64,000 nt of DNA from NCBI RefSeq assembly GCF_988243305.1, contig NZ_OZ547136.1, one strand, 5' to 3'. The position numbers were made by a program, and so were the translations under genes. Shown in pieces: positions 28,365 to 29,273 of this stretch; positions within the stretch are counted from its first letter, which is position 1; every line of letters begins with the position of its first letter. The notes beneath the pieces are model-generated. The model made no database searches. It had not been told where the DNA came from and worked only from the letters and a program-made list of their open reading frames with translations.

Positions 28365-28640
28365 GTGGCAAAAGTTTTTACACAAGAAGAGCGGGAAAAA
28401 ATTAAAGGGCTGATCGTGGAATTCGTACGCCTTAACGGACGAGGCACGATTCGGCAGTTATCGGATGAAATTGGTGTCAGTCATACGTCTGTCGGTCGTT
28501 TATGCATGGAGCTGGCCGCCAGTGGTGATGTTTACAATTCCGGTTACGGAGTATTCCCGTCTGAGCAGGCGCGCAAGGACTGGCAAAACGCCCGCAAAAA
28601 AACTCTCAAGGGCAAAGCTGAAGAAACCATCTGTGGTTGA
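28365..28640 (+). CDS. hypothetical protein with HTH-like region
   Basis: 91-aa ORF MAKVFTQEEREKIKGLIVEF... Confidence 0.45.
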   Translation: MAKVFTQEEREKIKGLIVEFVRLNGRGTIRQLSDEIGVSHTSVGRLCMELAASGDVYNSGYGVFPSEQARKDWQNARKKTLKGKAEETICG

Positions 28641-28784
28641 TCCGGACCTTATCTGGCTATTACCTGACGGAGAAATACGTCGCTACGACAGGCGTCAGAA
28701 CATAATCTGTCGCGAGTGCCGGAAGAGCGAAGTTATGCAGCGCGTACTGGCGTTTTATCAGGGGAATTTTCAGGAGGTAGCGCA

Positions 28785-29273
28785 GTGAGTGCACCGGCAA
28801 CCATTCTTGATATGTGCTGTGGCAGCCGTATGTTCTGGTTCGATAAGAATGACGACCGGGCGATATTTAGCGATATCAGAAAAGAAGAGCACACATTGTG
28901 TGATGGACGACGCCTGATTATCAGTCCTGACCTGATAGCAGATTTTCGAGCATTACCATTTGCAGACGCATCGTTTCCGGTTGTTGTATTCGACCCTCCG
29001 CATCTTGAGTGTGTTGGTGATAAAGCCTGGATGGGAAAGAAATATGGACGGTTGAATAAAGATACCTGGCGTGATGATTTGCGGCAGGGATTTAAAGAAG
29101 CTTTTCGTGTGTTGTGGCCACATGGCGTTCTGATTTTTAAATGGAATGAAACGCAAATATCTGTCCGCCAGATATTGGCACTAACCGACGCGAAACCAAT
29201 CATCAGCCAGCGCACCGGTAAGAACGATAAAACACATTGGATTATTTTTGTGAAGGAGGCGACCAGTGGGTAA
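28785..29273 (+). CDS. small SAM-dependent methyltransferase (putative DNA MTase)
   Basis: GTG start after AGGAGG; motif I-like ILDMCCGSRMFWF and motif IV-like VVFDPPH. Confidence 0.6.
   Translation: MSAPATILDMCCGSRMFWFDKNDDRAIFSDIRKEEHTLCDGRRLIISPDLIADFRALPFADASFPVVVFDPPHLECVGDKAWMGKKYGRLNKDTWRDDLRQGFKEAFRVLWPHGVLIFKWNETQISVRQILALTDAKPIISQRTGKNDKTHWIIFVKEATSG

Follow-up and report, generated by a model that had tools for sequence, protein, structure and literature searches.

A frameshifted DUF977 gene beside an intact orphan methyltransferase with a putative DNA substrate in an Escherichia coli prophage

The window analysed here, a 64,000-nucleotide (nt) stretch of contig NZ_OZ547136.1 (assembly GCF_988243305.1), holds a lambdoid Escherichia coli prophage whose early-right operon includes the locus of interest, positions 28,365 to 29,273. 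Two genes occupy this locus on the plus strand: a DUF977/LygF gene (28365..28788) that is split by a 1-nt insertion, one extra A in a poly-A run, and directly downstream of it an orphan methyltransferase gene (28785..29273) predicted to encode a minimal class I S-adenosylmethionine (SAM)-dependent enzyme of 162 amino acids. The initial annotation of the region placed these genes in the nin region, and the methyltransferase does lie in the equivalent of that region, downstream of the replication genes and upstream of the Q antiterminator; it also read the downstream remnant of the split gene as a zinc-finger-like mini open reading frame (ORF) coupled to the methyltransferase. We are nearly certain that the anatomy is instead that of a frameshifted DUF977 gene followed by an intact orphan methyltransferase.

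The 5′ part of the DUF977/LygF gene (28365..28640, plus strand) carries the winged helix-turn-helix (HTH) half and encodes a truncated product of 91 residues, the last 13 of which are out of frame. It matches positions 1–81 of the Pfam DUF977 model PF06163 (E=6.5e-15), and the 51-codon frame with the CRECR motif (28633..28788) matches positions 83–134 of the same model (E=1.4e-15); PHROG 142 shows the same two-ORF split. The frame is broken at a run of seven A residues (A7, 28596..28602), which is A6 in all five intact comparators examined (L001, L002, L006, L086 and L087). This difference is the sole indel against the closest relatives, both E. coli (L086, 98.7% identical, and L087, 97.8%). 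The 3′ part, 28597..28788 on the plus strand, now lies in the +1 frame and aligns codon for codon with the intact 140-residue LygF of phage PhiR42_1. The two ORFs together span the whole model of the DUF977/LygF/‘Ren-like’ family (PF06163, PHROG 142), but the single uninterrupted frame of about 140 codons typical of that family is absent from the window, whose copy is interrupted by the +1 frameshift and hence a pseudogene. In the literature, LygF is merely a gene name from a Salmonella prophage remnant.

The layout described initially can be read directly: the 51-codon frame opens at GTG 28633, overlapping the stop of the preceding ORF, contains CRECR, and closes with a TGA (28786–28788) that overlaps the methyltransferase GTG at 28785. 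Such overlaps are what would recommend a real zinc-finger-like protein whose translation is coupled to that of the methyltransferase and which works with it, for example as its DNA-targeting subunit, and with the allele stably inherited, termination–reinitiation could in principle yield a 51-residue peptide. However, neither the independence of this ORF nor its coupling to the methyltransferase held up. In every intact relative examined the segment is the DUF977 C-terminus, about a third of the protein, in frame with the N-terminal part, and GTG 28633 is an internal valine codon; no Shine–Dalgarno sequence precedes it, whereas the genuine starts at 28365, 28785 and 29266 each have an AGGAGG. 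The overlap with the methyltransferase start is that of the intact gene, since in PhiR42_1 and E. coli 55989 one 140-residue DUF977/LygF gene ends with its stop overlapping the methyltransferase start. Rather than the four cysteine or histidine ligands of a zinc finger, the 51 residues hold two cysteines (CREC) and no histidine, too few for this segment to make a zinc finger by itself; in L020, a DUF977-like relative, the CREC position has a single cysteine. DUF977 lies immediately upstream of the methyltransferase in only 4 of the 75 viral loci whose methyltransferase neighbours we surveyed, and it is also present where the methyltransferase is missing, which rules it out as a DNA-targeting partner. 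We give the coupled zinc-finger protein next to no credence.

Homopolymers such as this A7 run are well known for sequencing errors and for slippage during transcription or translation, and the split could in that case be a sequencing artefact or a programmed recoding site, with full-length DUF977 still made. Against this, five independent assemblies (L091–L095; different sequencing runs, one metagenome) are 100% identical to the window over up to 909 nt, A7 included, which indicates a heritable pseudogene allele and no sequencing error. The exact 91-residue truncated product is public as CTS68453.1 and STM61802.1, and 24 contigs of 36 indexed blocks encode it. Recoding is unlikely because restoring the frame takes a +1 shift, or the loss of one A, rather than the usual −1. 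Nor do the comparators with A6 give any sign of recoding in the DUF977 family; every match listed from a search with hits in about 3,700 E. coli genomes carries the annotation of a normal, uninterrupted DUF977 protein. We rejected sequencing error and programmed frameshifting on the strength of the five identical assemblies and the wrong direction of shift, and an artefactual or recoded split of either kind is highly unlikely.

The methyltransferase gene starts at GTG 28785, 7 nt downstream of an AGGAGG Shine–Dalgarno sequence (28772..28777, plus strand) that can be read directly, and ends at 29273. As proposed initially, its product is about 160 residues long, 162 by our count, and carries ILDMCCGSRMFWF and VVFDPPH; motif I, LDMCCGSR, is encoded by nt 28806–28829 and DPPH by nt 28992–29003. 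The protein is identical to WP_001275729.1/CAU96898.1 of E. coli 55989, annotated ‘class I SAM-dependent methyltransferase’, and the ratio of nonsynonymous to synonymous substitution rates (dN/dS) against relatives, 0.13–0.17, indicates purifying selection. It matches PHROG 954 ‘DNA methyltransferase’ (E=5e-86) and the PADLOC models MTase_II PDLC03288 (2e-71) and oMTase PDLC03730 (6e-49). The gene is thus real and intact, and many E. coli prophages already carry an annotated copy (RefSeq, PHROGs, PADLOC).

It belongs to a large family, which comprises 7,819 clusters at 90% identity and 1,990 at 50% identity (E≤1e-3). Longer members have N- or C-terminal extensions that are not conserved, so the conserved unit of the family is a core of about 155 residues. 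Many enterobacterial homologues are 248–251 residues long, with the core fused to a conserved C-terminal segment of about 90 residues (…ELESLLLVD…HHQRRLKHHINRMWLEKMPVP…); examples come from Leclercia, Citrobacter, Klebsiella and Enterobacter (P0013, P0067, P0099 and P0083). The PhiR42_1 homologue (L001 3485–3841), annotated at 118 residues, is truncated.

Across 96 diverse members of the family, the invariant or nearly invariant positions are L8-D9 and C12-G13 (motif I, LDxCCGSR), D30, R32, P48-D49, D53-F54, F69-D70-P71-P72-H73, Y87-G88, W95, G102-F103-x-E105, R108-V109-L110 and F118-K119-W120. D70-P71-P72-H73 are at least 90% conserved. A confident AlphaFold2 model (mean predicted local distance difference test score, pLDDT, 94.6) shows a Rossmann sheet that is compact and has few or no helices in its N-terminal half (residues 1–81). 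The fold has the features of a class I enzyme: a seven-stranded Rossmann-like sheet; a motif I loop after strand 1, in which LDxCCGSR aligns with LDLACGVG of PH0226; and the acidic residue D30 after strand 2, invariant, as is D9, in all 96 members. The DPPH loop is placed after strand 4. Motif I (residues 8–15) precedes DPPH (70–73), an unpermuted order that differs from the permuted one of β-class DNA methyltransferases. We found nothing equivalent to a target-recognition domain in the model, where the protein ends just after the last core strand. The enzyme is thus modelled as a minimal Rossmann SAM-binding domain devoid of a recognition domain, an absence that suggests a sequence specificity that is probably short or relaxed.

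We addressed the question of substrate by profile comparison, aligning the profile of the small-enzyme family with single-sequence templates in hhalign. The window’s own 349-residue M.EcoGII-like methyltransferase, described below, was matched with P=89.8% (E=1.7e-6), and E. coli YhdJ with P=89.2% (E=2.2e-6); the 99 columns aligned with YhdJ begin at the strand preceding DPPH and extend past ‘RVLkPgG’. The controls were negative (RsmD 1.3%, TrmN6 1.0%, an MT-A70 protein 0.5%), the last of them ruling out kinship to MT-A70. A diverged PF01555 enzyme from one family locus (L003), which has ADIPYN in place of DPPY, gave no useful match. The half of the small enzyme from DPPH to RVLxPxG is homologous to the catalytic half of β-class DNA amino-methyltransferases, and residues D70–H73, a motif IV of the (D/S)PP(Y/F/H) form, align with the DPPY of both YhdJ and the M.EcoGII-like enzyme. 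When the 96 members were scanned against Pfam, Methyltransf_11 was matched by 92, Methyltransf_25 by 80 and N6_N4_Mtase (PF01555) by 27 (E≤0.1, best E=3.1e-4); PF01555 is the third most frequent match in the family, ahead of any RNA methyltransferase family.

With the β-class (PF01555; YhdJ, M.EcoGII, M.RsrI, CcrM) the small enzyme shares a catalytic loop of the form (D/S)PP(Y/H) after strand 4 and, beyond it, a segment containing W and the ‘RVLkPgG-L’ strand, with hhalign probabilities near 90% over 65–99 columns, as well as being an orphan encoded by a phage or prophage. It differs in having an N-terminal motif I in unpermuted order and no target-recognition domain, in falling below the PF01555 threshold, and in being half the size, 162 residues vs 280–350. 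In phages the family was always met in replication or nin modules; its distant members, too, are located in phage replication modules, and several adjoin genes for other DNA methyltransferases: a PF01555 enzyme (L003), an MT-A70 enzyme (L019), C5 enzymes (L021, L059) and a DUF4942+MTS protein (L057). From these similarities we predict, with moderate confidence, that the small enzyme is a DNA N6-adenine or N4-cytosine methyltransferase, unpermuted and lacking a recognition domain.

Several observations pull the other way. No Pfam or NCBIfam model reaches its cut-off for the small enzyme, the best sub-threshold models being Methyltransf_11 and Methyltransf_25; PF01555 itself is not matched by the window’s protein at E≤0.1, short of its gathering score. 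A single-sequence search of the Protein Data Bank (PDB) found nothing, and a profile search gave generic SAM-domain matches only, the best being PH0226 (5.8e-6), over motifs I–III. The top structural neighbours are likewise generic, with template-modelling (TM) scores of 0.45–0.59, and are small-molecule, lipid or RNA methyltransferases: PH0226, phosphatidylethanolamine N-methyltransferase, Bud23, Trm11 and rRNA m4,4C synthase. The hhalign probabilities to DNA methyltransferases, about 90%, are moderate and come from single-sequence templates, and the DPP motif is also present in RNA and protein amino-methyltransferases. At 162 residues and lacking a recognition domain, the enzyme may have little affinity for DNA by itself, and our literature search found no published activity or recognition motif for any member of the family.

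Two other classes of substrate have to be weighed against DNA. The small enzyme could be an RNA methyltransferase, of the rRNA/tRNA amino-group or m7G type, that modifies host or phage RNA: one copy is named ‘TRM11 family methyltransferase’ by the Prokaryotic Genome Annotation Pipeline (PGAP), and lack of a recognition domain is common in RNA methyltransferases, which read structure or use partners. Yet the profile has almost no similarity to the RNA enzymes RsmD and TrmN6 compared with the two DNA methyltransferases, and neither the profile similarity nor the THUMP-like module of an RsmD, TrmN6 or Trm11 type enzyme was found; the small enzyme has no extra domain in its 162 residues, be it THUMP, PUA or another RNA-binding module, its structural scores are generic, and its genomic neighbours are replication and DNA-modification genes. 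We consider an RNA substrate unlikely. The enzyme might instead be of the Methyltransf_11 type and act on small molecules, lipids or proteins, modifying, for example, a metabolite or host protein during infection, and here the commonest Pfam matches of the family and the best PDB profile match, both reported above, are on its side. With generic Methyltransf_11/25 enzymes such as PH0226 (PDB 1ve3) it does share motifs I–III and the overall Rossmann sheet, but the Methyltransf_11/25 models mainly cover the generic SAM-binding half, whereas the invariant DPPH loop and the W...GFxExxRVLxPxG segment of the small-enzyme family align with DNA amino-methyltransferases. Moreover, the enzyme has no substrate-binding lid or cap domain and, unlike such generic enzymes, few or no helices in the N-terminal half of its model, and a position among phage DNA-metabolism genes speaks against a metabolite role, which makes this an improbable reading too. 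More specific than a DNA substrate as such, and a minority chance in our estimate, is the proposal that the family is an uncharacterised and widespread one that contains the smallest known DNA amino-methyltransferases, unpermuted relatives of the β-class with little or no specificity and a broad anti-restriction function; their target would be adenine or cytosine, possibly in single-stranded or replicating DNA.

The small methyltransferase stands alone. A missing restriction partner had been remarked on in the initial annotation, and there is none among its window neighbours (DUF977, small hypothetical ORFs, DUF551, DUF968, RusA and Q) and no recurring nuclease partner across the 75 viral loci; the adjacent cognate endonuclease of a Type II restriction-modification system is absent. 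Upstream and downstream genes in those loci are diverse, including Ead/Ea22, a dATP/dGTP pyrophosphohydrolase with DUF551, and others. In E. coli BEC1-S17-ESBL-09 (L086), DUF977 is followed directly by the 84-residue ORF that lies downstream of the methyltransferase in the window, and the methyltransferase is precisely absent. Diverse neighbours and this absence indicate that the tight start/stop overlaps reflect compact phage gene packing and no dedicated partnership. Both methyltransferase junctions in the window (28772–28790 and 29253–29271; compare L086 1930–1955) have the sequence AGGAGG-N6-GTG(A/G)GT, a pattern suggesting that the cassette is gained or lost through recombination at conserved gene boundaries. 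Prophages seem to lose DUF977 or the methyltransferase independently of each other.

The 84-residue ORF (29266..29520, plus strand; PHROG 4030) overlaps the methyltransferase stop and has four cysteines, C6, C16, C69 and C72. The pair C6 and C16 near the N-terminus and a CPFC near the C-terminus are spaced in a way that recalls the split zinc knuckle of Trm112. Because several of the small methyltransferase’s structural neighbours depend on Trm112, we considered the ORF as a Trm112-like activator. We judged this unlikely: the ORF lies downstream of the methyltransferase in 1 of the 75 viral loci, occurs free of it in L086 and has no Trm112 Pfam match.

The second, larger orphan methyltransferase with a DPPY motif that had been noted at 36001..37050 (plus strand) is also present, downstream of Q. 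It is a 349-residue β-class enzyme (PF01555, E=2e-44) with TDPPYF near its N-terminus and FFMGSGST near its C-terminus, and its gene is 95.0% identical at the nucleotide level to the methyltransferase gene of phage 1720a-02 and 94–95% identical to those of many Shiga toxin 2 (Stx2) phages. M.EcoGII, an enzyme of 349 residues with DPPY in its N-terminal and FxGxG in its C-terminal part, is non-specific for adenine, nearly identical to M.EcoGI and very similar to the enzyme of 1720a-02 (PMC5778455). The second enzyme shares this length and motif layout and, judged by its sequence, is a member of the known, characterised M.EcoGI/M.EcoGII family, an assignment made through the 1720a-02 homologue and the published description of M.EcoGII. 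M.EcoGI and M.EcoGII are prophage enzymes that are silent in lysogens and active when cloned (PMC5778455, PMC4659465). By analogy the small enzyme, also a prophage orphan, is likely to be silent in the lysogen; it differs in belonging to a separate family with no full-length similarity to M.EcoGI/GII, and for it non-specificity is hypothetical. A pair of orphan methyltransferases within a single prophage is a common arrangement, compatible with anti-restriction, and an anti-restriction role for the two is plausible.

The adhE/ychE flank of the window is 99.9% identical to many E. coli strains and places the stretch in the E. coli chromosome; the prophage begins at an integrase on the minus strand (20155..21285). 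The gene order then comprises a CI-like repressor (25936..26709; HTH and S24 peptidase domains), Cro and, along the early-right operon, a YdaT-like gene (26914..27339; identified by Pfam and by the RefSeq annotation of identical neighbours in L086 and L091), an O-like replication protein (27347..28324), DUF977, the methyltransferase and small ORFs to RusA (34228..34608) and the antiterminator Q (34605..35426). Genes for DUF551 and DUF968 are placed between the small-methyltransferase region and RusA. The cII position is taken by the YdaT-toxin-family protein (26914–27339), which matches Rac-like prophages. A hypothetical ORF of 103 residues (29513..29824, plus strand) is the next gene in the same tightly packed early-operon module, and the gene order through this ORF is the same in E. 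coli 55989 and in L091–L095.

Downstream of Q, the region 36001–40713 has the layout of a Stx-converting phage: the M.EcoGII-like methyltransferase, tRNA-Met(CAT) at 37100–37172, tRNA-Arg(TCT) at 37276–37352 and a NanS-p-like esterase (DUF1737/SASA/DUF6645) at 38845–40713. No ORF of the size of the stx A subunit lies between the M.EcoGII-like methyltransferase and the NanS-p-like esterase, and the prophage appears to be a stx-negative relative of Stx2 phages.

The account that we somewhat favour as a whole combines the frameshifted DUF977 gene, the intact orphan methyltransferase and a DNA substrate for the latter, which we infer. DUF977/LygF has been inactivated by the heritable +1 A insertion, and the supposed mini-ORF is its stranded 3′ end. 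The small enzyme would be made on prophage induction or infection, and not in the lysogen, and would, together with the non-specific adenine methyltransferase of M.EcoGII type, shield the phage broadly from host restriction enzymes; its gene would act as a mobile cassette, gained and lost by recombination at conserved junctions between genes. One practical consequence concerns the comparison of methylomes between a lysogen and a cured strain, which would be prone to a false negative because these genes are repressed in lysogens, as for the M.EcoGI/GII homologues, and the small one lies in the repressor-controlled early operon; early-operon prophage methyltransferases cannot be dismissed on such data.

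The locus is in itself ordinary, its small methyltransferase being already annotated and the supposed zinc-finger partner a pseudogene fragment. It does, however, draw attention to a family of methyltransferases of about 160 residues, with no recognition domain, that spans thousands of phage and prophage genomes and for which we found no published substrate. Were the enzyme also non-specific, a protein of 160 residues could find use in footprinting as a compact counterpart to M.EcoGII or Hia5. If its substrate is indeed DNA, the family could add a minimal enzyme to those known to modify DNA and account for a further layer of anti-restriction in phages.
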